Positions 1 to 58,127 of a DNA stretch of 64,000 nt are shown piece after piece; position 1 is the first letter of the stretch, and each line of letters opens with the position of its first letter. The notes beneath the pieces were generated by a model. That model saw nothing but the letters and a program-made list of their open reading frames with translations. It was not told the origin of the DNA and ran no database searches. Origin of the DNA: Candidatus Enterousia sp. Lineage in GTDB: Bacteria; Pseudomonadota; Alphaproteobacteria; Rs-D84. A program made the position numbers and the translations under genes. Where the stretch lies: contig JAZRSO010000004.1 of assembly GCA_045651525.1 (NCBI GenBank), positions 17,127 through 81,126 of the forward strand. The letters are read 5' to 3'.

Positions 1-224
1 GCGTGTGCAATTAGTCTTGCTGTGTCTATTGTTTTGTATTTATTTGCTAATGGGCGTATGTTGTGTCTAATGTTGTTTTTGTCGTAATAAAAACCATATG
101 GATTGCTGTCGATAGTTGGCATAAATCGACCTTTTTTTCGTTTGCTTTCTACTGCGCCAAATTCGCAACGTTTTGGGCATCCATTGCATTTGTTTGTGTT
201 AAAACCAAGTAGTTGTGAAAACAT
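1..224 (-). CDS. Small Cys-rich protein, sixth paralog of the CX2CX3C tandem family. Its 3' end is cut by the window edge.
   Basis: The minus-strand ATG is at 224-222. The frame stays open to position 1. The N-terminus reads MFSQLLGFNTNKCNGCPKRCEFG, matching the MFTQ..NTNKCNGCNKLC N-termini of the downstream paralogs. Confidence 0.45.
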   Translation of the reverse strand, partial: MFSQLLGFNTNKCNGCPKRCEFGAVESKRKKGRFMPTIDSNPYGFYYDKNNIRHNIRPLANKYKTIDTARLIAH

Positions 225-238
225 ATTTATATATCCGT

Positions 239-739
239 CTATCTTTGTATCAAGTAGTTGTCGCATGCTTTGGCGACTTTAAAAGCGTACATTTTTGCGT
301 GAAATTCGTCGGTAAAATTTGGTGTTTTTTGTATTTGGCCAAATGTATTTATATGGTATTTGATTAGTTTTGAACCTATTTTAGTTATAAATATTCCTTG
401 GATTTTTTGTGATGAAAATAAACAATGGTGAGAACAGCCGATGCAACGGTCAAATTGTGGTGTTTGTGTTTTGGGTGTGATTTTTCTGTTTTTATAGCTT
501 TTGCATTGTTGAACCAGGTTTTTTGCTGCTTTTATTGCGTCTTCTAGTGTTGCGTACGGTCGGCGAATTGGACGTCGATTGCCGAATTGGTCTTGCGAGT
601 ATGTAATAGGTTCATTGTTTTTTGTGGGTAAATATCTGTACTTGCCGTGTCCACGGGTTATGTAATATGCGCCTAATATGCACAGTTTGTTGCAACCGTT
701 GCATTTGTTTGTATTAAGTCCAATTTTTTGTGTGAACAT
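239..739 (-). CDS. Small cytoplasmic Cys-rich protein, paralog 1. It has two CxGCx3C motifs and ends in ACDNYLIQR.
   Basis: The ORF spans 239..877. The start was trimmed to the ATG at 739 (MFTQKIGLNTNKCNGCNKLC), 10 nt downstream of the neighbouring paralog's stop. The second motif is CIGCSHHC. There is no signal peptide. Confidence 0.6.
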   Translation of the reverse strand: MFTQKIGLNTNKCNGCNKLCILGAYYITRGHGKYRYLPTKNNEPITYSQDQFGNRRPIRRPYATLEDAIKAAKNLVQQCKSYKNRKITPKTQTPQFDRCIGCSHHCLFSSQKIQGIFITKIGSKLIKYHINTFGQIQKTPNFTDEFHAKMYAFKVAKACDNYLIQR

Positions 740-749
740 TGTTTTTGCC

Positions 750-1256
750 TTATTTTCGATTTTGATAGTTGTCGCACAGATGGGCGATTTTATTTTTTGC
801 AAACATTTTAGCGTGAAATGCATCGTAGAAAATGCGCGATGTTTGAATTTCGCCAAAAGCATTGATGTAACGCTCAATTACTTTTGATCCGATTTTTGGG
901 ACAAATATACCGCGAATAATTTCTGATGAAAATATACAGTGGTGTTTGCAACCGATACAGCAATCAATGTCAGGTGTTGTTAATTGGTCTTTTTCTATAC
1001 GGTAATCTGTGAAATCGTCGCATTGATGTGACAGTAATTTTGCTGCATTTATTGCATCGTGTGCGGTTGTGTATGCTTTTGCTAGTGGACGATTGTTTCC
1101 GTGTTGGTCTTTGGTATATATTTGTACTTCGTTATTTTTGGTTGGTAAATATTTTTGTTTGCCGTCAATAGTTGTTACTTGTAATGCCCCAAGGGTGCAC
1201 AGTTTGTTGCAACCGTTGCATTTATTTGTATTTATGCCTTTTGTTTGTGTGAACAT
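750..1256 (-). CDS. Small cytoplasmic Cys-rich protein, paralog 2 (CNGCNKLC and CIGCKHHC, ending in LCDNYQNRK).
   Basis: The ORF spans 750..1283. The start is the ATG at 1256 (MFTQTKGINTNKCNGC). It lies 5 nt from the stop of paralog 3 and is about 50% identical to paralog 1. Confidence 0.6.
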   Translation of the reverse strand: MFTQTKGINTNKCNGCNKLCTLGALQVTTIDGKQKYLPTKNNEVQIYTKDQHGNNRPLAKAYTTAHDAINAAKLLSHQCDDFTDYRIEKDQLTTPDIDCCIGCKHHCIFSSEIIRGIFVPKIGSKVIERYINAFGEIQTSRIFYDAFHAKMFAKNKIAHLCDNYQNRK

Positions 1257-1261
1257 TATGA

Positions 1262-1762
1262 TTATCTTTGATAGTTGTCGCACAGGTTGGATATGTGTTG
1301 TGCGCGTTTGATGGCCATATCTTGTGATTCATAGTATGGTACGTTTTTTGTAAGACCGCGTTTGTTTTTGTATTTTGTTATCGTTTTTGTGCCAATAACA
1401 GGTAAAAATCCATCACGATTTTGTGTTGATATATGTTGCGCAGCAAGTGTGCATTTACATTCGCAACCGTGACATTGTGTGTCTGTGAATGTTTGTGCGA
1501 CTGGTTGTGGTGGTGCAACGTAATGTTTGCAAGATTTTACAGCGGTATATGCGTGTGATAATGCGACGGTTGCAGAAACGTATGTTGTAATAAAATGCTT
1601 TTTGCCGCTTTTATCACGATAGTGCGGTATTGGCTGTCCGTTCTTTGTTGGGCGAAAGTTTATATAGTTGTCGTATAATACGACGGCCTGGACACCCAGT
1701 TTGCACCTGCGGTTGCAACCGTTACATCTGCCGATATGAATAGATTGTTCTTGGGTAAACAT
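1262..1762 (-). CDS. Small cytoplasmic Cys-rich protein, paralog 3 (RCNGCNRRC and CHGCECKC, ending in LCDNYQR).
   Basis: The ORF spans 1262..1762 and begins MFTQEQSIHIGRCNGC. It has the same architecture as paralogs 1 and 2. Confidence 0.6.
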   Translation of the reverse strand: MFTQEQSIHIGRCNGCNRRCKLGVQAVVLYDNYINFRPTKNGQPIPHYRDKSGKKHFITTYVSATVALSHAYTAVKSCKHYVAPPQPVAQTFTDTQCHGCECKCTLAAQHISTQNRDGFLPVIGTKTITKYKNKRGLTKNVPYYESQDMAIKRAQHISNLCDNYQR

Positions 1763-1766
1763 ATTT

Positions 1767-2087
1767 TTATCGATGGTTTTGATAGTGATCGCATAATGGA
1801 ATAATTTCTTCTTTTAATAATTCCAATGCTTCTTCGGCTGTGTTGCGTTTTGTGTTTGTTTGCAAGACATTGTTTGCGTCAAAGTATTCCATAACCGGCT
1901 GTCTGTCGATGGTTGGTACCCATTTTGTGCCATATTCGCCGATGACTTGGATTGTGTTGTCGGCTGCTGGTTGTTTTGGAACATCAATGGCTTTTACGCC
2001 CAGTCTGCAATGGTATTGGCAACCATGGCATATGTCGTATAAGTTGCATGCTGTGATATTGATTTTGTTTTCTTGGGTGAATTTCAT
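1767..2087 (-). CDS. Small Cys-rich protein, paralog 4. It is a shortened copy with a single CX5CX2CX3C block and ends in LCDHYQNHR.
   Basis: The ORF spans 1767..2297. It was trimmed to the ATG at 2087 (MKFTQENKINITACNLYDICHGCQYHC) so that it does not overlap paralog 5. The conserved C-terminus is retained. Confidence 0.5.
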   Translation of the reverse strand: MKFTQENKINITACNLYDICHGCQYHCRLGVKAIDVPKQPAADNTIQVIGEYGTKWVPTIDRQPVMEYFDANNVLQTNTKRNTAEEALELLKEEIIPLCDHYQNHR

Positions 2088-2101
2088 ACTTGTCACCTTT
2101 T

Positions 2102-2344
2102 TTATTTTGTGTGTTGATAGTTCGCGCAGTGCGTAACATGTATTCTTGCGCGTGCAATTGCAAGTAAACGTGTGCTTGATGCTGCGGGTTGTTCTATGTC
2201 GTCTATATCTATATAGGTTTTTAATAGTTTTTGATTGACTGTTGGGTAGTATTCGGGTGTCCAAGACAGCAAGTTTCTGTGTGTGCCAAATGCACAATGG
2301 AGTTCACAACCGTCACAATAATTTTCGTTTATTTTGATATCCAT
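2102..2344 (-). CDS. Small Cys-rich protein, paralog 5 (80 aa, one YCDGCELHC block, ending in HCANYQHTK). It is the first gene of the array.
   Basis: The ATG is at 2344. An AAAGGA Shine-Dalgarno sequence sits 8 nt upstream, and a near-consensus promoter lies immediately upstream. Confidence 0.5.
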   Translation of the reverse strand: MDIKINENYCDGCELHCAFGTHRNLLSWTPEYYPTVNQKLLKTYIDIDDIEQPAASSTRLLAIARARIHVTHCANYQHTK

Positions 2345-2372
2345 AATTTGAATCCTTTATTGTTTTGGTATA

Positions 2373-2400
2373 ATTATAGACAAATATATATAAATGTCAA
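2373..2400 (-). promoter_or_regulatory. Near-consensus sigma70 promoter driving the Cys-rich paralog array.
   Basis: On the minus strand, TTGACA (2400-2395) is followed by a 16-nt spacer and TATAAT (2378-2373), about 25 nt upstream of the paralog 5 ATG. Confidence 0.5.
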
Positions 2401-2437
2401 GTTGATTTTAAGATTTTTTTATGTTACCTTATTTTGT

Positions 2438-3145
2438 ATGAGATTAGATCAAGCGCTTGTTCTTTGTAATTTGTACCCTACCCGTGCCAAGGCCGTGGCG
2501 GCAATAAAGTCCGGTTTGGTGACTGTGAATGGTGTTGCGGCCAAAAAGCCCAGTCAGATTGTGTCTGATACAGATGTGTTGGATGGGGGTGCGTTGCCCT
2601 ATTCCGTGGGGCGCGGTTCGTTAAAGTTGGAACGTGCGTTGGAATATTTTGACGTAAATCCAATGGATTATGTTTGTTTGGATATTGGCGCCAGTACCGG
2701 CGGTTTTACATCTGTTTTGTTGGCGCGTGGCGCAGAACGCGTATATGCGGTTGATGTGGGAACAAATCAGTTGGACGAGTCATTGCGTGCAGATTCGCGT
2801 GTTGTGTCGCTGGAACAGACAGATATTCGTGAACTGTCCCCTATTTCGCCGGTTGATTTGATTGTGATTGATGTTTCGTTTATATCGTTGACGAATATTG
2901 TTGAATTCTTGCCGCGTTGGGGTGCAAAAACAGTTATTGCATTGATAAAACCACAGTTTGAGGTTCCGCGCGACGTCGCAGCCAAATTTAATGGCATTAT
3001 AAAATCGTCAGATTGGCATGATTTTTCAATAAATCGTGTTGTTGATGCGTTTTCACAGTATGGTTTTAAGAATATCGGTATTACAGAATCACCGGTCAAA
3101 GGCGGCAGTGGTAATACAGAATTCTTGGCCTGTTTTCGTGTGTAA
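2438..3145 (+). CDS. tlyA: TlyA-family rRNA 2'-O-methyltransferase / hemolysin A.
   Basis: An S4-like N-terminus (MRLDQALVLCNLYPTRAKAVAAIKSGLVTVNG) is followed by an FtsJ-like SAM motif (DIGASTGGFT). The listed ORF starts at 2231, but homology begins at the ATG at 2438. Confidence 0.85.
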   Translation: MRLDQALVLCNLYPTRAKAVAAIKSGLVTVNGVAAKKPSQIVSDTDVLDGGALPYSVGRGSLKLERALEYFDVNPMDYVCLDIGASTGGFTSVLLARGAERVYAVDVGTNQLDESLRADSRVVSLEQTDIRELSPISPVDLIVIDVSFISLTNIVEFLPRWGAKTVIALIKPQFEVPRDVAAKFNGIIKSSDWHDFSINRVVDAFSQYGFKNIGITESPVKGGSGNTEFLACFRV

Positions 3146-3376
3146 AAAATTCTTTGTACTTTTATTATGTGATGTGTTATAATTCACAGGTCAACGGGTG
3201 TTTGTTGACTGGGTTTAGCGACCCATTGGTAAGCGTCATGTAAAGACGTAAAAACTTATTCCAACCATTGGTTGGAGTGTGTGAATATATTGAATAAGCA
3301 CGCAATTCTTACTATTGTCGCTAAACTCCAACCACTCGTACAATAAAATACGGTGGTTTTTGTTTTGGGGGATGTG

Positions 3377-4174
3377 GTGAGGTATTTACTAACGATTTTT
3401 GTTATTTGTTATGCCAATGGTGCGATTGCTGCCCTACCCGATATTGTGTTGTGTGATGGGGGATTTCCAGTAATGAATGCGGTGTCAGAAACGTCTGTGT
3501 CCGAAACTGGCGAAGAAATTATTACGCCAATTGTTGAGTATTCTTGTCAACCGTATTCGCAGGGAATTTGTCCGACATCATATGTTTCGTATGATGTTTC
3601 AGGGTTGTTTCCAACAGATATGGATGGAAATTGTAATTCTGAAAAAATTCGTAAAGTCCCGTCACATGGTGGGTTTGTTGCGTCGGGATTTCCGGTAACA
3701 TTGTGCGATAATGGGTATTTTGATGGTGTCGCGTGTGTGCCTTATTCGGAGGCTTCGGAAAATTGTCCGACGGGTTATTTCAAGGCGTTTGCTAATAAAT
3801 CTGTACAACGCGTTTATGGAGAATGTCCGGATAAAACGGTATTGTTTTCCAATGAAAATATTGCAGTTTGGACATATCCGTATGATGATAATGTGGATGC
3901 AGATATCGTGTTGCGTTTATGTGATACTGGTTACGATATGAATTATTTGGGCGAGTGTGCAGCACTGTGTTCGGTTTCAAATACAGGTGTAAAAACGCAA
4001 TATTTACGTACGGATACTGGATTGAGTTTTCCTGTTTATAGCAAAAAATTAACGGTTCCGTCGTTGAATGTCAAGACAGGTAATCGTCGTTGTTATGTGA
4101 ATATGATTCCTGGTGGTGGCCTAAATGCAATAAATATCACGAGTGAAGATACGACTTATAGGGTTGTGTATTAA
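3377..4174 (+). CDS. Secreted Cys-rich hypothetical protein with CxxGY-type Cys repeats.
   Basis: The ORF spans 3353..4174 and begins with a GTG. The GTG at 3377 follows a GGGGGA Shine-Dalgarno sequence and gives a clean signal peptide (MRYLLTIFVICYANGAIAA). The protein contains motifs such as CDNGYFDGVAC and CPTGYF. Confidence 0.55.
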   Translation: MRYLLTIFVICYANGAIAALPDIVLCDGGFPVMNAVSETSVSETGEEIITPIVEYSCQPYSQGICPTSYVSYDVSGLFPTDMDGNCNSEKIRKVPSHGGFVASGFPVTLCDNGYFDGVACVPYSEASENCPTGYFKAFANKSVQRVYGECPDKTVLFSNENIAVWTYPYDDNVDADIVLRLCDTGYDMNYLGECAALCSVSNTGVKTQYLRTDTGLSFPVYSKKLTVPSLNVKTGNRRCYVNMIPGGGLNAINITSEDTTYRVVY

Positions 4175-4192
4175 ATGTATGGAGAAAGTGTA

Positions 4193-4663
4193 ATGCGTTG
4201 TATATTTTTTTCTTTGTTATTATCGTTATTTATTCTGGTGGACGCATGGTGTGCATTATGTCAGAGTAATTTTTCTGTATTAGTTACATTGGACAAAGAT
4301 TCTGGTAATACAGTAAAATATAGCACTCCTCAAATTGATGGCATGAATTGGCGTATAGATGTGGATTATGACACGATGACTTCGATAAATGGTACGTTTC
4401 GTTTTTTGCGTGGGGTTGCGTCATGTAGTGAATATGTTGGAAATTCACAATATGCGTTTGTTACGGGTTATCAAGTAACACCGGCGGATGATGTTGGGAT
4501 TTATTGTTGGTGTGCATTACGTCGGCCTGCGACCACGTATTTTATGTTTTTGCAGGCGTATAATAGTGTGGATGCGTGTGTGGCAGATTGTGCTGCGCAA
4601 TGTGCGAATGGTGTTCGTTCAAGTTATTTATTTAGAGATCATTTGTTTGAGGGGGTATGGTAA
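4193..4663 (+). CDS. Secreted Cys-rich protein of the CWC...CVxDCAxxC family.
   Basis: A GGAG Shine-Dalgarno sequence sits 8 nt before the ATG at 4193. The signal peptide is MRCIFFSLLLSLFILVDA. The core reads SCSEY...YCWCALRR...DACVADCAAQCANG and is shared with 4663..5154 and 27098..28309. Confidence 0.6.
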   Translation: MRCIFFSLLLSLFILVDAWCALCQSNFSVLVTLDKDSGNTVKYSTPQIDGMNWRIDVDYDTMTSINGTFRFLRGVASCSEYVGNSQYAFVTGYQVTPADDVGIYCWCALRRPATTYFMFLQAYNSVDACVADCAAQCANGVRSSYLFRDHLFEGVW

Positions 4664-5154
4664 TGAAATTATATTTATGTCTTTTTTTGTGTTTGTTTAC
4701 AATTGGTGCTGGTGCTGTAACATTTTGTGTAAAGCCAGATGTTATTGCGCTGGGTATAAGCTCGTTAAAAATCCCAACGGTAACATCGTATTCTGGGTTT
4801 GATTGGTCGGCATATGTACCAGAATTTGGTACGATACATGGTATTTCGTCTTGTAGTGATAAAGGTGGTGATAACTCTGTAAATTTGCATGGCTGTCGTA
4901 TCGGTAGTTATTGGGGGCATGTTGCTGCAAAGGGTGAAGATGTAAATAATAATTATTATGGTCGTGCTGATGGAAAAAGTTGTTGGTGTAAAATGACGCA
5001 TCCTGTTGAGTCGGGTTGGATTTTGGTTCATATATATACAGATGTGTGTGTATCAGATTGTGCAAAAAATTGTGGAAATTATTTAAAAAGCACTAGTCCC
5101 GATCACGCTAGTACACTTCGTTGTATGTTAGCGACTGTAGGTTTGGAGGAGTGA
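4663..5154 (+). CDS. Secreted Cys-rich protein of the CWC...CVxDCAxxC family, adjacent paralog.
   Basis: A TAATG stop/start overlap joins it to the upstream gene. The signal peptide is MKLYLCLFLCLFTIGAGA. The core reads GISSCSD...SCWCKMTHP...DVCVSDCAKNCGNY. Confidence 0.6.
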   Translation: MKLYLCLFLCLFTIGAGAVTFCVKPDVIALGISSLKIPTVTSYSGFDWSAYVPEFGTIHGISSCSDKGGDNSVNLHGCRIGSYWGHVAAKGEDVNNNYYGRADGKSCWCKMTHPVESGWILVHIYTDVCVSDCAKNCGNYLKSTSPDHASTLRCMLATVGLEE

Positions 5155-16811: not shown

Positions 16812-17609
16812 ATGACAATACATCCAACTGCTATTATTCACGAAGGCGCTAAAATCGGTGCAGATTGTAAGATTGGGGCATACTGCATTATTGGGCCAAA
16901 TGTTGTGCTGGGTGATCGTGTGGAATTGGTTTCTCATGTCGTTATTGACGGAAAAACATCGATTGGTGATGATTCTATTGTGTACCCTTTTGCAGTACTG
17001 GGCGTAATGAGTCAGGACTTAAAATGGCAAGACGAAGCCGCAATGACAGGTCTGCGTGTTGGTAAGCGTTGCAGAATTCGTGAATATGTAACAATTCATT
17101 CTGGAACACCTGCATCAGATGGTACGGTTATTGGCGATGACTGTCAGATTATGGTTAATGCGCACGTTGGTCATGACTGCAAGATTGGTAACAGTGTTGT
17201 TATGTCTAACCTGGTTCAGGTCGCCGGACATGTAGAGGTTGAAGATTTTGCAATTTTATCTGGTGGTGTAATGGTCTTGCAGTTTGCACGTATTGGACGT
17301 AATGCGTTTGTTGGGGGAATGTCCGGGGTCAGCAATGATGTCTTGCCGTATGCGATTTATGATGGTGCGCGTGCTGTATATCGTACAATCAATCGCGTTG
17401 GCCTGATGCGTCACGGATTTACAAACGAAGATATGCATGCGATTCATTCGGTGTATTCTGCGGTATTCCGCACAGACGAAGGTACTGTTGCAGAACGCTT
17501 GGCCAAGGTTCGTAAAGAAGTAAAAAATAACAAATATGCGATGGACGCGATTGACTTTATTGAAAACCGTTCAAAGCGTGGAATTGGTACATCAAAAAAT
17601 GCAGAATAA
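16812..17609 (+). CDS. lpxA: UDP-N-acetylglucosamine O-acyltransferase.
   Basis: Left-handed beta-helix hexapeptide repeats begin with MTIHPTAIIHEGAKIGADCKIGAYCIIGPNVVLG. The protein is 265 aa and overlaps lpxB. Confidence 0.9.
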   Translation: MTIHPTAIIHEGAKIGADCKIGAYCIIGPNVVLGDRVELVSHVVIDGKTSIGDDSIVYPFAVLGVMSQDLKWQDEAAMTGLRVGKRCRIREYVTIHSGTPASDGTVIGDDCQIMVNAHVGHDCKIGNSVVMSNLVQVAGHVEVEDFAILSGGVMVLQFARIGRNAFVGGMSGVSNDVLPYAIYDGARAVYRTINRVGLMRHGFTNEDMHAIHSVYSAVFRTDEGTVAERLAKVRKEVKNNKYAMDAIDFIENRSKRGIGTSKNAE

Positions 17610-19466: not shown

Positions 19467-21206
19467 TTATTGGTTGGTTGTCCATGGTACGTCGTTCATA
19501 ATCAGATAATACAGTTCTGGGGTATCTGTATCAATTCCGCGCAGAACAGGTCTGACGACATAAATGTCAACATTGCATGGGCTGTTAGTATCATTTTGCA
19601 CTTCCATTAAATCTTCGTGGAATTTAGCGGCAAAATCCATTGCTTGCAGATATGCGGCATCATCATCAGCGGCAGATACAGAATCCCCCGCCCACATCAG
19701 CCACATACCATAATTCACAACGTTTTCTTGACCTTTGATATCATCGGCAGATAACAACAGTAATGGCTTGAATTCGACATCGTTGGTGAATTCACCGGTG
19801 CTGGTTTCTGTGAAATCGTACATATTACCAACAAATTTAATGGCGCCGTACAACAGGCCTGTATTTGCGGTCATCTTGGCCAATGTACTGGCGTTTTTAA
19901 GTGTAGAATGAAACAGCCAATCTTTTACGCGTGTGGATAATTTACTGGCGCGTGCGGCCTTGGCGCCCTTGGCCAGAATTTTGTTGCCGTTAAATGCGGC
20001 GCGTGTTGCCTTGGTAACCTTGACGGCGCGGGCAAAGACGTTGCCACGATGTGCCTGTTTGGTTATTGCCTTGGCACCCTGTAATGTTTTGCGATATTTT
20101 TGCAGGTCGCTGTATGCGTCGGCCTGTTCGATATATTTTTTTACATCGTCGCTGTTTTCAATTGTTTTTAATGCGTCTTTGATTTTGTCCAGTTCGGCCG
20201 TTTTATCGGCGATTTTTGCGGCGTCTTTGACCTTGTCCAGTGCTGCGATTTCCTTGGTCAGTTTGGTTACCTGTCCCGATGTTTTGATGTAATCACGTAC
20301 AGAATCCAGTTTTCGTAATGCGCCCAATGATTTAGACAGGTCTCGCATAGTTTTTGTTGCGCGTATTCCTTTGAGTCCCCCAGAAACAAACGCACTGCCC
20401 CCCAGTGTCGCGACGGTCAGAATAACGTCCGCAGCGATTTCTGCATATCCAATCCATTCAAGGTTTATATCGCCTGCAACATAATATTCGTTTGAATCAT
20501 CGCCCGTTGCCAATGCGCCGGCGCGATTCAGTGCCAGTTTGTTGCCAGTAATTGCACTGCGTGATGTGCACGCGCCACCATTTAGTGATGCATTTGGATA
20601 GAATTTATCAATGTTATCGTTTATGTATTTTAATGACAGTGTGTTATTTTTTTGGGGACCAACAAATTCGTTTAATGCGCCCGATTGAACAACCATAATT
20701 CCATACCATGCTGGTTCTGTATTTGTCCAAACGGTTGGGTCGCCATTTTCACCAATACGCGGATTTGGGTCAGATGTTGGCAACGTGCGTTTATTTGCCG
20801 TCAATATACGTTGTTTTATAATCTTTGGCTGTGTTTCATAGTTTATTGCAATCAAGCGCCCATTTGGAAAAGTGTATTGAATTGGTGTAAAACGAATTGT
20901 GTCTTCGTTACCCAAATTTGCCAGTTCTGGACATTCCAATACGCGTGTCAGTGTTTGTCCATCGTAGAATATATCGTAAATCCATTGTTGTATAACTTCT
21001 TCGGGGGCAGATTCATCAACGTTTTGTGCGGTTTGTGCCAATTGGTCTGCCCAAATTTTGGATGCGCACGGTGTGTCTGCATTTTGAATGGCGGCTTGTT
21101 CCAATTCTGCCAACGACACTGCATCATCTGGCACAATAACATCATTTGCATTGGCAGAATTATGATACTGTATTATAATCAATGATAATAGTAATGTTTT
21201 AATCAT
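19467..21206 (-). CDS. Exported membrane protein of 579 aa. It has an N-terminal domain, a hydrophobic segment, a Lys/Ala-rich amphipathic region, a second hydrophobic segment and a C-terminal domain. It is a paralog of 21199..22581.
   Basis: The signal peptide is MIKTLLLSLIIIQ. The hydrophobic segments are IAADVILTVATLGGSAFVSGGL and TGLLYGAIKFVGNMY. The central KxxK-rich stretch runs from KTMRDLSKSLGALRKL to AKGAKAARASK. Confidence 0.55.
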   Translation of the reverse strand: MIKTLLLSLIIIQYHNSANANDVIVPDDAVSLAELEQAAIQNADTPCASKIWADQLAQTAQNVDESAPEEVIQQWIYDIFYDGQTLTRVLECPELANLGNEDTIRFTPIQYTFPNGRLIAINYETQPKIIKQRILTANKRTLPTSDPNPRIGENGDPTVWTNTEPAWYGIMVVQSGALNEFVGPQKNNTLSLKYINDNIDKFYPNASLNGGACTSRSAITGNKLALNRAGALATGDDSNEYYVAGDINLEWIGYAEIAADVILTVATLGGSAFVSGGLKGIRATKTMRDLSKSLGALRKLDSVRDYIKTSGQVTKLTKEIAALDKVKDAAKIADKTAELDKIKDALKTIENSDDVKKYIEQADAYSDLQKYRKTLQGAKAITKQAHRGNVFARAVKVTKATRAAFNGNKILAKGAKAARASKLSTRVKDWLFHSTLKNASTLAKMTANTGLLYGAIKFVGNMYDFTETSTGEFTNDVEFKPLLLLSADDIKGQENVVNYGMWLMWAGDSVSAADDDAAYLQAMDFAAKFHEDLMEVQNDTNSPCNVDIYVVRPVLRGIDTDTPELYYLIMNDVPWTTNQ

Positions 21207-22581
21207 CTATTCTTATACCATCAATAAGCAATCCGACATCTCCATTTCCTTGGGGCAATAATGTGCTTTGATCGTATAATGGTACGCCGATATACATATC
21301 TATGTCATCTTCATTCCAATCGCAATTTCCTGAATTTTGAATGGTGCTACTAATTGCTGATTTTATTTTTTCCCATTGTTCTTGTGTTGTCATAAGCACG
21401 TCTCCGGCAGATGGGACTCCTTTGTTGTTTATTTCACGCAATACATAATTGCTATTTTCGTCAATACATAGCCGTTTACCTAATATTGGCTTGAATACCT
21501 TTTCATTTAAATCGTCTGTTGGACTGTTCAAATTGTCTTTTGTGCAAGAAGTGTAGCAACCTTCTCTTTTATCTGTGTCGGTACAATTCATTATTTGCGT
21601 GTCTAAGCCGGATTCTAGAAAACTATAAACAATACCCAAGCCACCTGCTGCTGCGATTGGAGTAGAAATTGCAAATGTTGTCATTGCACGCTTTAATGCT
21701 GCTGTTGCTAATGCTTCTGTTGTTGTTGCTTTAACCGTTTTTTTTGCGGCATCTTTGGCAATTGCATCGTTTAATAGCGTTAATGCTTGTTTGCCGGTGC
21801 TGGATTGTACAGTACCATTTGCTATGTTTCGTTCAATTTCTTTTTTTATGGCTTGTTTAGAGATTCGTTTGCCACCTTTTTTCTTTAAGGCCTCTTTTGT
21901 TTGAGCAACAAGGGTGTTTGCCATGGCTTTTTTTGTAGCGTCTGTAGCCGCTTTTTGTGCTGCTTTTACAGCTGCTTCTTTCCCTGCTTCGACCCCTAAT
22001 TTTTTTGCGGTTTGTGTTGCTGCTGCCTTTTTTATTGCTGCTTTTGTTGCAGCTCTACCGCCCTTTTTTACACCAAACTTTATTAATCCTTTTGCGCCTT
22101 CTTTTACAACGACTTTTGCGCCTTGTATTGCTACACCACCTGTGCCACCAGAAAATACGGCAGCGACTATTGTTGTTGCCCACAACGCAGCGTCTATTCC
22201 AGCTTGATATGATCTATTGTTTTCGCATACAAACAATTGTCTTTTATTAGATGTGGTAGTGAGAGCTGCGGCAACCTCCTCAACAATATAATCCCAAGTA
22301 ATATCTATTAGCAATCCGTCTTCTTCGATATATATATCCTCGTCTGGGCTGGTGCGGTTTAATAAGTAATCGCGACACGTATCTATATTCTTTGTAAAAA
22401 ATTCGATTAAACCATCAGAAGTAATTTCAATAGAATCGTTCTCTGTGTCAAAATTATCAAGACTGTTTACAATATCGGTTGCTAATGCGTGTATACATTT
22501 ATCTGAATCGGCGTGTGCAGAAAGTGTTGTTACAAGAACAACAGAAAGAATCGCTAAAAAACGTAATGAGTGTTTAATCAT
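21199..22581 (-). CDS. Exported membrane protein of 460 aa with a Lys/Ala-rich segment between two hydrophobic segments. It is a paralog of 19467..21206.
   Basis: The signal peptide is MIKHSLRFLAILSVVLV. The hydrophobic segments are ALWATTIVAAVFSGGTGGVAI and ISTPIAAAGGLGIVYSFL. The central region reads AATKAAIKKAAATQTAKKLGVEAGKEAAVKAAQKA and continues in the same style. Its start and stop overlap those of the neighbouring genes as ATGA. Confidence 0.55.
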   Translation of the reverse strand: MIKHSLRFLAILSVVLVTTLSAHADSDKCIHALATDIVNSLDNFDTENDSIEITSDGLIEFFTKNIDTCRDYLLNRTSPDEDIYIEEDGLLIDITWDYIVEEVAAALTTTSNKRQLFVCENNRSYQAGIDAALWATTIVAAVFSGGTGGVAIQGAKVVVKEGAKGLIKFGVKKGGRAATKAAIKKAAATQTAKKLGVEAGKEAAVKAAQKAATDATKKAMANTLVAQTKEALKKKGGKRISKQAIKKEIERNIANGTVQSSTGKQALTLLNDAIAKDAAKKTVKATTTEALATAALKRAMTTFAISTPIAAAGGLGIVYSFLESGLDTQIMNCTDTDKREGCYTSCTKDNLNSPTDDLNEKVFKPILGKRLCIDENSNYVLREINNKGVPSAGDVLMTTQEQWEKIKSAISSTIQNSGNCDWNEDDIDMYIGVPLYDQSTLLPQGNGDVGLLIDGIRIDD

Positions 22582-23516
22582 TTTGGAAATGCAGATATTA
22601 TTTTGTTTATGAGTTGTTGTTTTGCCTCGTTGGTTGTTTGACCGCCGTTATTATTGCCGCCGTTATTGTTGCCGCCGTTATTATTTTGGGTGCAATCTGT
22701 ATCGGATGGGTATTTTTTACAAAAATCTGTGTGAGATAAATTCTTTTTGTCTTGTATTTTTTGGAATTCTAATTCTTCCTGGGCAAGTTCTTTTTGCCGG
22801 GTTAGATATTCTTCCTTACTCTCAATATTTAACCTGTCAAATGCGGATACGTCTTTGTATGGTTCGTAACCAATCTTTTCGTTTTCCATGCGTTCGGTAA
22901 ATGATAAATCAGCATATGTTGTTGGAAATGCCGCCGCCTTTATACCGTACTGATTTGTGCCGTTTTGGGATTGCAGGTTTTGTAATTCTTGTTTTTTGTC
23001 CTGTACTTCAACTGCCCAGTCGGGTGCCTGGGGGGCAAATGGATTTTTTATTTGAATTGGTTGAATGCTGTTGTTGTTTGGTGTTGGAAATGCAACAACG
23101 TTCATTTGTGGTGTTGCGCGACCATATTTTGCAACATAATCATTAAATGCACCGTCAATATATCCGCCACAAGATGTCGCGTAATTCCCAGTCGTTATAC
23201 GTGATAGTTGAACCATAACGCTTGGGCGAACGTCTGATAATTCTGCGTTTGCACAATTGTTCATCCCTGCACACGTTATGGCAATTAAATCAGCAACAAC
23301 TTGTTGGCAATCATCTGTGCCAACCTGGGGCCCCATTGCATATACAGGTGATGGTAACCGATTGTTATATGGTGAATCTGGGTTATATGCAGGGTTTGTG
23401 GAATAGTTTTGAACGTTCTGAATCACACCGTATTTTGAGAATATAGACGCAGAATATGCCGGCAAAATCAATGCCATAGTGCCAATAAATGTATAAAAAA
23501 GGTGTGCGCATTTCAT
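22578..23516 (-). CDS. Secreted hypothetical protein with NNNGG repeats near the C-terminus.
   Basis: The ORF begins with TTG at 23522. The first ATG, at 23516, gives the signal peptide MKCAHLFYTFIGTMALILPAYSA. The C-terminus reads NNNGGNNNGGNNNGG. It lies 22 nt downstream of the prepilin peptidase gene. Confidence 0.5.
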   Translation of the reverse strand: MKCAHLFYTFIGTMALILPAYSASIFSKYGVIQNVQNYSTNPAYNPDSPYNNRLPSPVYAMGPQVGTDDCQQVVADLIAITCAGMNNCANAELSDVRPSVMVQLSRITTGNYATSCGGYIDGAFNDYVAKYGRATPQMNVVAFPTPNNNSIQPIQIKNPFAPQAPDWAVEVQDKKQELQNLQSQNGTNQYGIKAAAFPTTYADLSFTERMENEKIGYEPYKDVSAFDRLNIESKEEYLTRQKELAQEELEFQKIQDKKNLSHTDFCKKYPSDTDCTQNNNGGNNNGGNNNGGQTTNEAKQQLINKIISAFPK

Positions 23517-23543
23517 TCTCAATTCATATCCCTGCTTGATTGA

Positions 23544-24014
23544 TTATAACAAAAACAGATTTGTAATGAAAGATAAAAATCCACCAATAAAGAAAAATGG
23601 TGCAAATGGTATATATTTTTGATTTTTATTCTTGGCCCATAATGTCCCCAGTATGCACGCGATAATCAGTGCGATTGCCAACCCATTTGTGCCCAGCCAC
23701 ATGCCACCTACCCCCAGTAACTTTATGTCGCCCATCCCAATCGGTGCGCATGCGTCTGGGTTCTGTTTGGTAAGTTTATAATCAAATACAGCGCCAATAA
23801 TTGCAGACATTAAATAACCAAACGCCCCGCCAATAACCGCAGATTGCAGCGTTATCGGAAAAGAATAAAACGCAATCAATGTCAGCCCAATCAACATCAA
23901 TGGAAACAAGTATGCGTCTGGAATAATACGACGACGAAAATCTGTGACGGAAATTAAAATTGATAAAATTGCGGCGATAACCAGTAAAATAATGAAAAAG
24001 ATGTAAGAAATCAT
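23544..24014 (-). CDS. Type IV prepilin peptidase, A24 family, of the short TadV/CpaA-like form.
   Basis: The protein is polytopic and 156 aa long, with Asp-containing motifs (TDFRRRIIPD...GMGDIKLLGVGGMWLG). An AAGGGAGA Shine-Dalgarno sequence precedes the start. It is the first gene of a four-gene minus-strand operon. Confidence 0.7.
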   Translation of the reverse strand: MISYIFFIILLVIAAILSILISVTDFRRRIIPDAYLFPLMLIGLTLIAFYSFPITLQSAVIGGAFGYLMSAIIGAVFDYKLTKQNPDACAPIGMGDIKLLGVGGMWLGTNGLAIALIIACILGTLWAKNKNQKYIPFAPFFFIGGFLSFITNLFLL

Positions 24015-24087
24015 ATTTTTCTCCCTTGCGTTTCGAATCGGAAATATGCTACACTTATATTATAATGTAATACAAGGGTTTTGTAAA

Positions 24088-24678
24088 ATGAGTACAGGTT
24101 GGGATAACGCAACATTAAAAAAACTGAAAGCATTGACAGGCAAAGGGCTGTCAACGTCTGAAATTGGTAAACGTTTGGGGATGTCAAAAAATGCCATCGT
24201 GGGTAAGTTAAATCGCTTGGGCTGGAATGCCAAGGCTGGCGGTGCGACGGCTGCAACTGTGGCAACGGCCAAAAAAACAGAAAAAAAGCCGGCTGCGAAG
24301 AAAACAGCGGAGGTATCTGCAAAAAAAGCAACGGTGGCGAAAAAGGCACCTGTAAAAAAGGAAACGGCGGTCAAGGCGCCTGTAAAAAAAGCAGAAAAAA
24401 AGCCAGTCGATAAACAAGAAGTCGCTGTGGCCAAGGTTAAACCTGTCAAGGAATCAACCAGCACCAAGGTTAGTGATAAAAATTTGGCTGTACATCAGCG
24501 TATCATTCAACATTCGCTGGAAATGGCAAATCTGAAACCAAATCAGTGCCGTTGGCCGATCGGCGATCCCGATTCGGAACATTTTCATTTCTGTGGTGAA
24601 ACAGTGTTTGTCGGTAAACCTTATTGTTATGAACACTGCAAGCAGGCGTATCAATTCGCAGCACCAAAGAAAAAATAA
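24088..24678 (+). CDS. gcrA: Cell-cycle regulator GcrA.
   Basis: The N-terminal HTH reads MSTGWDNATLKKLKALTGKGLSTSEIGKRLGMSKNAIVGKLNRLGW. A Lys/Ala-rich linker follows, and the conserved C-terminus reads CRWPIGDPDSEHFHFCGETVFVGKPYCYEHCKQAY. Confidence 0.85.
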   Translation: MSTGWDNATLKKLKALTGKGLSTSEIGKRLGMSKNAIVGKLNRLGWNAKAGGATAATVATAKKTEKKPAAKKTAEVSAKKATVAKKAPVKKETAVKAPVKKAEKKPVDKQEVAVAKVKPVKESTSTKVSDKNLAVHQRIIQHSLEMANLKPNQCRWPIGDPDSEHFHFCGETVFVGKPYCYEHCKQAYQFAAPKKK

Positions 24679-39121: not shown

Positions 39122-39150
39122 AAAAAGCGCACCGTTTGGTGCGTTTTTTT
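39121..39150. terminator. Bidirectional terminator shared by tolA (+) and rnpB (-).
   Basis: aaaaaaGCGCACCgtttGGTGCGCttttttt. The rnpB 3' end abuts it at 39151. Confidence 0.7.
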
Positions 39151-39457
39151 ACAAGACAGACATATAAGCCGGGTTCTGTTCTGCCATAAATAGTTTGCAC
39201 TTTTTATGGTAGCGAGCATGATTAATCTGCATTTTGCATTACTGCAAATGTCAAGCCTTCTACCCGCCCCCAATGTGGGACACATATACGGGGGCCTATT
39301 TGAAGTTGCTGTACGTAGAGATTGCCCGTTTCACCCGAATTTAATCGTATCGTCACTGTTGCTCTAATCGTCAGGTCACCCTGCCCGGTATATTAGCCGG
39401 TACGTTGTCCCATACAGCCCGGACTTTCCTCTGATATAAAAATATCAGCCATGCTCA
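39151..39457 (-). ncRNA. rnpB: RNase P RNA, bacterial type A, reduced to about 307 nt.
   Basis: The reverse complement contains the P4 halves AGGAAAGUCCGGGCU and ACAGAACCCGGCUUAU. It also contains GGGUGAAA, GCAACAG and CAAAUAGG...GGGUAG blocks. P1 pairs ACAAGA with UCUUGU. Confidence 0.85.
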
Positions 39458-39460
39458 GTC

Positions 39461-39493
39461 CATCTTGTGGATGTTATGTTATCAATTTTTTAT
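39461..39493 (-). promoter_or_regulatory. Candidate rnpB promoter.
   Basis: On the minus strand, TTGAAA (39493-39488) is followed by a 21-nt spacer and TAACAT (39466-39461), about 5 nt upstream of the inferred 5' end. Confidence 0.4.
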
Positions 39494-58040: not shown

Positions 58041-58127
58041 GGGGATATGGCGGAATGGTAGACGCTGAGGACTTAAAATCCTTTGATCATTGCGATCGTG
58101 TGGGTTCAAGTCCCACTATCCCCACCA
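58041..58127 (+). tRNA. tRNA-Leu (anticodon UAA), class II with a long variable arm. The 3' CCA is encoded.
   Basis: The acceptor stem pairs GGGGATA with TATCCCC. The anticodon loop is CTTAAAA. The T-arm is GTGGGTTCAAGTCCCAC. A long variable arm is present. The gene is 87 nt. Confidence 0.85.

Follow-up and report, generated by a model that had tools for sequence, protein, structure and literature searches.

A conserved operon of tandem four-cysteine domain genes, predicted to bind metal, in Candidatus Enterousia of the order Rs-D84

What are the small cysteine-rich proteins encoded head to tail at the edge of a Candidatus Enterousia contig, and why would a bacterium with so small a genome keep them? 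The window analysed here is the whole stretch of 64,000 nucleotides (nt) from positions 17,127 to 81,126 of contig JAZRSO010000004.1 (GenBank assembly GCA_045651525.1). It begins with a minus-strand array of six such genes, which was noticed in an initial annotation made by a model from the sequence alone. Enterousia belongs to the order Rs-D84, a group of uncultured gut bacteria with genomes of less than 1 Mb. These bacteria are fermentative, have no respiration and no tricarboxylic acid (TCA) cycle, have lost the greater part of their metabolism, and are believed to rely on other cells; they have been proposed to be partner-dependent, as obligate symbionts or parasites (PMC12306168). The observation of the array is correct and the array is clearly non-random; the genes are real and conserved. 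On balance we favor, with appreciable doubt, the reading that the array is a conserved operon of metal-stapled binding modules, holding Zn or a [4Fe-4S] cluster, for a macromolecular partner.

The array runs from position 2344 to beyond position 1, and its genes are labeled A to F from 5' to 3'. The open reading frame (ORF) list and the sequence agree with the initial annotation on six head-to-tail genes separated by 14, 4, 5, 10 and 14 nt and on the lack of signal peptides. Grand average of hydropathicity values are negative and the N-termini are not hydrophobic. No internal stop codon or frameshift was found in A to F (window 1-2400). The paralogues share 31 to 56% protein identity. Direct-repeat analysis detected a DNA periodicity of approximately 506 to 517 nt with copies that are 60 to 90% identical over short stretches only, as expected of paralogues that have diverged and not of an artefact of assembly. 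The array is also present in independent metagenome-assembled genomes (MAGs), and the genes can be taken as neither frameshifted nor artefactual. The Cys content is 4 to 5% (4 to 9 Cys per 80 to 168 residues). The Rfam search gave no match in the array or in the related loci, which are referred to below by L numbers.

The repeated unit of the array is a domain of about 80 amino acids (aa) rather than a gene. Nine segments of 74 to 106 aa can be aligned in the window, one each from A and B, two each from C, D and E, and at least one from F. Each domain carries one C-x2-C-x3-C motif (nine in the window), in which C, G, C and C are invariant in the alignment, and every complete domain ends in C-x-x-[YF], i.e., the last Cys is always present. 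The family signature is F-x-Q-x4-N-x3-C-x-G-C-x3-C-x-L-G ... [YF]-x-P-[TK]-I-x-G-x2-I-x2-Y-x-D-x2-G ... A-x3-A-x2-I-x3-C-D-x-Y. A profile analysis covering 188 domains (179 proteins) shows conservation of 98 to 100% for the four Cys, 98% for the Gly and 95% for the Pro. The other best-conserved segments are the extreme N-terminus (M-x-F-T-Q) and the C-terminus (C-D-x-Y with a basic residue near the end). In the 64-kb window the domain profile matched only the six ORFs A to F (E = 1e-19 to 1e-54). A second C-[IH]-G-C block reported earlier for most of the proteins is indeed present, and it is the Cys loop of the second domain copy. An MFTQ block had been described for all six N-termini, which needs correction: gene A starts with MDIKINENYCDGCELHC and lacks the block, gene B reads MKFTQ..ACNLYDICHGCQYHC, and the C-x-G-C-x3-C core is the only block common to all six proteins.

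Gene A (2344-2102, minus strand, as for all six genes) encodes 80 aa with a single domain (Cys10, 13, 17 and 73; pI 6.5; domain-profile E = 1e-24). Its class 1 orthologues open the array in L001, L007-L010, L012 and L013, and show dN/dS values of 0.14 to 0.24. Gene B (2087-1767; 106 aa, pI 5.7) also encodes a single domain, of class 2, in which about 20 aa are inserted behind the first strand and an extra Cys is present upstream. The profile match is at E = 2e-22, orthologues are found in L006-L010 and L013, and dN/dS against the L006 orthologue is 0.23. The extra Cys lies 5 to 6 residues before the C-x2-C-x3-C loop (ACNLYDICHGCQYHC) in the class 2 proteins of the window, L006, L008 and L013; those of L007, L009 and L010 have the plain loop without it. 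The two genes had been regarded as shortened paralogues. Instead, each has one domain and belongs to a conserved orthology class of its own.

Genes C, D and E each encode two domains, and their products are basic (pI 8.9 to 9.8). Gene C (1762-1262; 166 aa, pI 9.5, class 3) is divided into domain 1 (aa 1-84, 1762-1511) and domain 2 (aa 85-166, 1510-1265), and shows 98% identity to its L006 orthologue with dN/dS of 0.19. Gene D (1256-750; 168 aa, pI 8.9, class 4) has domain 1 at aa 1-86 (1256-999) and domain 2 at aa 88-168 (995-753), with dN/dS of 0.20 against L006. Gene E (739-239; 166 aa, pI 9.8, class 4) is a younger duplicate of D with 56% identity. It is missing from L006, the closest relative in GTDB, and is found in contig L031 at approximately 97% identity; a look-up of the exact gene E sequence returned no matching contig. 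Gene F (224 to <1, class 5) crosses the window edge, and only the first 74 aa, corresponding to the first domain, lie inside.

The fold of gene D was predicted with AlphaFold2 from family alignments. Two independent runs, on the two-domain protein and on isolated domain 1, reached predicted local distance difference test (pLDDT) scores of 79 and 73, respectively. They agree on the topology: the Cys loop spans residues 13-20, four beta strands follow, residues 65-77 form the C-terminal helix, and residue 79 is the last Cys. Each domain of the two-domain model is built in this way. The linker between the domains (residues 87-95) is disordered in the model, and the N-terminal segment has low pLDDT in the domain 1 model. 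The four thiolates of each domain are predicted to bind one metal centre. Metal binding, one of the explanations first suggested, is the obvious interpretation of four invariant Cys and is probable.

By sequence and profile comparison, the four-Cys domain is a new, lineage-restricted family. The statement that the proteins cannot be placed in any known family was borne out. Pfam, NCBIfam and PADLOC scans of the six proteins gave nothing above threshold; the only PHROG matches were weak (E = 0.017 to 0.033) and to families without a known function; no PDB sequence matched the profile at E<=10; and a Foldseek search of viral structures found none at E<=0.001. A literature search on CX2CX3C gave mainly papers on the ferredoxin motif CX2CX2CX3C and none on this domain family. 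With no detectable relative among curated families or solved structures, the domain defines a family of its own, and its metal-binding fold may be new as well. When each GTDB species was represented by one genome, relatives were detected in eight MAGs only; all come from gut samples and are assigned to Candidatus Enterousia or to unclassified Alphaproteobacteria. Among 5.8e9 proteins, a word-indexed search gave only 10 clusters, without Pfam domains or names. An exhaustive hidden Markov model search of 1.84e9 representatives gave 206 matches at E<=1e-3, mostly single-domain proteins of 75 to 115 aa. Every family member with a source name comes from an alphaproteobacterial MAG.

The position of the array is conserved. 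The divergent neighbor in the window (2438-3145, plus strand) encodes TlyA with S4 and FtsJ domains. In L001, L006 and L010 the array lies between divergent tlyA (beside leuS) and convergent mscL-aroK, and the site between tlyA and convergent mscL is occupied in the same way in every examined Enterousia locus that reaches both flanks, as well as in L019-L021. The same kind of array is found in the other Enterousia loci L007-L009 and L011-L013. A neighbor-joining tree of all domains resolved six orthology classes that occur in identical order in every species: class 1 is the A type, class 2 the B type with the insertion, class 3 the C type, class 4 the D/E type, class 5 the F type ending in RCDFYK, and class 6 a terminal protein of 83 to 94 aa. 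Domains 1 and 2 of the two-domain genes form separate clades, from which it follows that domain fusion preceded the gene duplications and that both took place before Enterousia speciation. L001 carries its own independent class 4 duplicate. The dN/dS between orthologues ranges overall from 0.14 to 0.41. The operon is old and under purifying selection. The fixed order of the classes and the purifying selection describe an old selected operon and not the rapidly diversifying set that had been considered.

Two further results bear on the history of the array. Compared with L006 (window 1-2344 against L006 101-1958), dS is uneven along the operon (0.07 for C, 0.14 for B, 0.45 for F and 0.63 for D). 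Together with the absence of E from L006, these values suggest that the operon has undergone internal recombination or allele replacement. The more distant loci L019-L021 have just two single-domain genes at the tlyA-mscL site, and L015 and L016 have one family gene each at this site. These small loci suggest an ancestral state of one or two single-domain genes, later expanded in Enterousia.

A sigma-70-type promoter (2373-2400, minus strand) precedes gene A, with a -35 element TTGACA (2400-2395), a 16-nt spacer and a -10 element TATAAT (2378-2373). It matches the consensus at 12 of 12 positions and is the sole such site within 1-3400. The Shine-Dalgarno sequence AAAGGA (2353-2358, minus strand) lies 8 nt before the ATG of gene A. 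Both elements were correctly described in the initial annotation. Upstream of the first array gene in the seven other Enterousia-type arrays examined (L001, L007-L010, L012 and L013), the promoter block aaaatcaaCTTGACAttt...tttGTCTATAtT matches at 11 of 12 positions with the same 16-nt spacer, and AAGGA is kept at the equivalent position in orthologous loci. The promoter is weaker (9 to 10 of 12) in the more distant L015, L016 and L019. The operon is probably strongly promoted and likely to be highly expressed, judging from these elements.

A near-identical contig, L031, was used to look past the window edge. It is 98% identical to window 3-1199 and reaches beyond the edge. Its full-length F is 170 aa long, has two domains and ends in ...RCDFYK. 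F is followed by a terminator-like hairpin CCGCAGATTTCTGCGG with a T-run (CCGCAGATTTCTGCGGTTTTT) and then by AT-rich non-coding DNA, with no further family gene past F in L031. The earlier expectation that the array runs off the window holds for F itself; the additional copies it allowed for are not seen in L031. The single-domain class 6 gene is present in L006 (1943-2194), L001 and L010 and is deleted in L031 (L031 1490-2220 compared with L006 1943-2652), which represents the lineage nearest to the window. From the end of F in L031, the window operon most likely consists of six genes and ten domains, the second F domain being counted from L031.

How might such an operon work? The domain would be a small module of beta sheet plus helix, in which the C-x-G-C-x3-C loop and the Cys after the helix supply four thiolates. 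The metal would tie the two conserved ends, F-T-Q at the N-terminus and C-D-x-Y-basic at the C-terminus, into a composite surface beside it. One or two single-domain genes between tlyA and mscL may have been the starting point of the family, and the expansion in Enterousia by domain fusion and gene duplication would have given the six classes in their fixed order. In their most likely role the products would be abundant binding modules, stabilised by metal, for a partner that is, speculatively, nucleic acid or protein, and the six classes would be non-redundant and probably act together. Abundance, non-redundancy and joint action are proposed because the promoter is conserved, the spacing is tight, and six ordered classes under purifying selection are kept in a genome of less than 1 Mb. 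That a genome of this size retains a paralogue operon of about 2.8 kb speaks for an important function.

Most small Cys4 domains of uncharacterised kind bind Zn. For the domain described here, Zn2+ seems somewhat more likely than [4Fe-4S], and is put slightly ahead because the redox metabolism of Rs-D84 is very small and the two-domain proteins are basic, unlike typical ferredoxins. Several points weigh against the proposed binding modules or their metal. The 3+1 Cys spacing is commoner in Fe-S sites than in classical two-knuckle zinc sites, and Zn is accordingly preferred only weakly. The pLDDT of the Cys loop is modest (56 to 72) in both AlphaFold2 models. Expression is read from the promoter sequence alone. 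The A and B proteins are acidic to neutral, a misfit with a uniform nucleic-acid-binding role. Finally, the neighborhoods of distant family members (L017, L022, L025, L027 and L029) are heterogeneous and contain no recurrent partner gene.

Some observations on the distant members are added here. The apparent small-gene array in L017 is the result of spurious calls inside one Cys-rich ORF of 957 aa. An acyl carrier protein (ACP)-like, i.e., phosphopantetheine-attachment-like, domain stands N-terminal of the Cys domain in the distant proteins P0097 and P0087, and is encoded directly upstream of a third distant member (L017 6230-6982). The Pfam scores are sub-threshold (PP-binding E = 0.02 to 0.03; Ribosomal_L50 E = 0.05) and are a lead only. 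The ACP-like domain in these three members is the sole recurring hint of a partner.

Among the other explanations, the one that survives best is a new class of [4Fe-4S] electron carriers replacing ferredoxin, with one cubane per domain and six proteins whose ten clusters would serve or wire the few redox enzymes of a strictly fermentative anaerobe. We regard it as unlikely. Three close Cys and one remote Cys make a typical Fe-S ligand pattern, molybdopterin oxidoreductases use the equal CX2CX3C spacing, and there are weak Pfam hints of Molybdop_Fe4S4 (E = 0.076) and Fer4_2 (E = 0.096). The host gut is anoxic, and a conserved strong promoter would suit an abundant carrier. However, the Fe-S scores in Pfam and NCBIfam are far under threshold and involve one domain each, no match to an Fe-S fold was found, and there is no Pro after the last Cys. 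Ferredoxins are typically acidic, whereas the two-domain members are basic. Ten clusters also seem excessive for Rs-D84 bacteria, whose redox metabolism is very limited and includes neither respiration nor the TCA cycle (PMC12306168). Alternatively, the domain might be a new metal-cluster fold (for example [4Fe-4S] or redox-sensing Cys4) that staples the two termini. Its six non-redundant classes would then form, or act as, a lineage-specific regulatory or sensing system, comparable in function with WhiB-like proteins, for the partner-dependent life of the reduced-genome Rs-D84 Alphaproteobacteria, a proposal that we hold to be doubtful.

It is improbable that the proteins are a lineage-specific effector set, exported non-classically and acting on a partner or host cell. 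The proposed life of Rs-D84 as obligate symbionts or parasites (PMC12306168) would suit such a set, as would the confinement of the family to this lineage and its expansion there. In some distant members the Cys domain is joined to further domains of unknown kind, and the strongly conserved M-x-F-T-Q N-terminus could serve as a recognition tag. This N-terminus abuts the Cys loop in sequence, however, and with its low pLDDT it may simply belong to the domain. There is no signal peptide and no adjoining secretion-system gene. Fixed classes with dN/dS of about 0.2 are unlike fast-evolving repertoires, and Cys4 metal sites are typically intracellular.

A diversifying immunity, antitoxin or anti-phage set produced by recent tandem duplication, which had been among the first suggestions for this locus, is very improbable. 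The tandem paralogue array itself, the variable copy number (E absent from L006, class 6 absent from L031 and the separate class 4 duplicate of L001) and the uneven dS against L006 (0.07 to 0.63) would be expected of it, and Microvirus prophages lie beside the locus in two relatives, one of them also with an ART-PolyVal gene. Against this, the classes are old, syntenic across species and under purifying selection, and the flanks are the housekeeping genes tlyA/leuS and mscL/aroK. No toxin-like partner gene was found. Anti-phage and phage families were rejected on the PADLOC and PHROG results above, and tblastn against phage genomes and plasmids together with a scan of viral contigs detected no homologue.

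RiPP (ribosomally synthesized and post-translationally modified peptide) precursors, metallothionein-like buffers and unreal genes (assembly artefacts or decaying pseudogenes) are effectively excluded: the conserved N-terminal block and repeated Cys are superficially similar to the first two, but no modification enzyme is nearby, the proteins are predicted to fold as defined domains, the Cys content is merely 4 to 5%, and the frames are intact, with dN/dS well below 1 and diverged copies in independent assemblies.

The metal-stapled binding modules stay our preferred explanation. A lineage-specific operon with ten copies of one domain in a genome of less than 1 Mb is unlikely to be dispensable and may point to clade-specific biology. 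The family members are small, soluble proteins of 80 to 170 aa, for which metal content and structure should be straightforward to test. If the function were never established, they would be one more conserved family of unknown function from uncultured bacteria.

Other features were seen in the window and in the related loci. A Microviridae-type prophage (Phage_F capsid and REP_ORF2-G2P) is present in L015 (10852-16600) and L016 (8414-13933), from two different Rs-D84 MAGs. Its position is identical in both, between the Cys-domain gene and mscL, and the non-coding DNA after the array may therefore be a site of recurrent integration. The ART-PolyVal ADP-ribosyltransferase gene of L015 (8940-10019) lies beside the prophage. 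In the window, 3353-4174 (plus strand) encodes a Cys-rich protein of 273 aa without a Pfam match. Clear homologues are found in L010 (6138-7091, syntenic) and as the C-terminus of the 957-aa Cys-rich ORF of L017 (9978-12851), and the protein is probably a member of a lineage-specific surface or secreted family. The ORFs downstream of it (4175-4663 and 4657-5154) also lack a Pfam match. Three consecutive ORFs of 579, 460 and 314 aa (19467-23522, minus strand) have no Pfam match at E<=1e-5 and adjoin a type IV prepilin peptidase (Peptidase_A24) gene (23544-24014); together they may form an unrecognised pilus or secretion module. GcrA, BamD, LpxA/B and MurJ, all encoded in the window, are as expected for an alphaproteobacterial chromosome; the cell-cycle regulator GcrA, an alphaproteobacterial marker, is encoded at 24046-24678 (plus strand). 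Like GcrA, a bacterial class A RNase P RNA (39148-39467, minus strand) and a tRNA (58041-58124, plus strand) are ordinary housekeeping features in support of the taxonomic assignment.

The domain was compared with known Cys families. The ferredoxin motif C-x2-C-x2-C-x3-C-P is present in none of the six proteins, and Fer4 (11.3 bits) and Fer4_2 (13.2 bits) each scored on one protein only, below the cut-offs of 21.1 and 24.5. Radical SAM enzymes have C-x3-C-x2-C in a TIM-barrel-type domain of more than 200 aa; the spacing is reversed in our domain of about 80 aa, and there was no Radical_SAM match in Pfam. Metallothioneins have roughly 15 to 30% Cys, in C-x-C and C-C clusters. This family was rejected, since Cys makes up only about 5% of our proteins and the domain is predicted to be ordered. 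The zf-FCS profile gave 16.1 bits (E = 0.01, on the Cys loop of D) and 13.3 bits, with a cut-off of 22.4.

The CX2CX3C spacing had been said to match neither classical ferredoxin, radical SAM nor a zinc ribbon, which is right but incomplete as a list of known motifs. It does occur in molybdopterin oxidoreductases, where C-x2-C-x3-C binds a [4Fe-4S] cluster in the N-terminal domain. This Molybdop_Fe4S4 domain (PF04879), found in molybdenum-bis(pyranopterin guanine dinucleotide) (Mo-bisPGD) oxidoreductases and NuoG, resembles ours in the first three ligands, a beta hairpin and a remote fourth Cys. In Molybdop_Fe4S4 the fourth Cys is about 25 to 30 residues on, and the domain is the N-terminus of a molybdoenzyme; in our proteins it is 52 to 71 residues downstream, within 80 to 168 aa and without a catalytic domain. 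The profile scored 13.4 bits on gene C residues 91-109 (cut-off 22.7) and did not match the other eight domains. By profile score, by the position of the fourth Cys and by architecture, the proteins fall outside this family.

Four Cys ligands and a Gly-containing C-x2-C knuckle are also found in zinc ribbons, zinc knuckles and MYM-type zf-FCS domains, which are likewise small. Zinc ribbons and zf-FCS have two C-x2-C (or C-x3-C) knuckles; our domain has one knuckle and two single Cys (3+1 ligands) and is much larger, about 80 aa, with a four-stranded sheet plus a helix. The WhiB-like (Wbl) proteins of Actinobacteria are similar by analogy only: they are lineage-restricted four-Cys proteins of 80 to 120 residues, with several non-redundant paralogues per genome and a short basic C-terminal tail. 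Wbl proteins have C-xn-C-x2-C-x5-C spacing and a helical fold. Our proteins differ in Cys spacing, in a predicted fold of four strands and one helix, in phylum and in having their genes in a single operon, and no Whib (PF02467) match was found at E<=1. Also among the closest known systems are the dsRBD-like and AP2/ERF-like nucleic-acid-binding domains, which are built of beta sheet plus helix.

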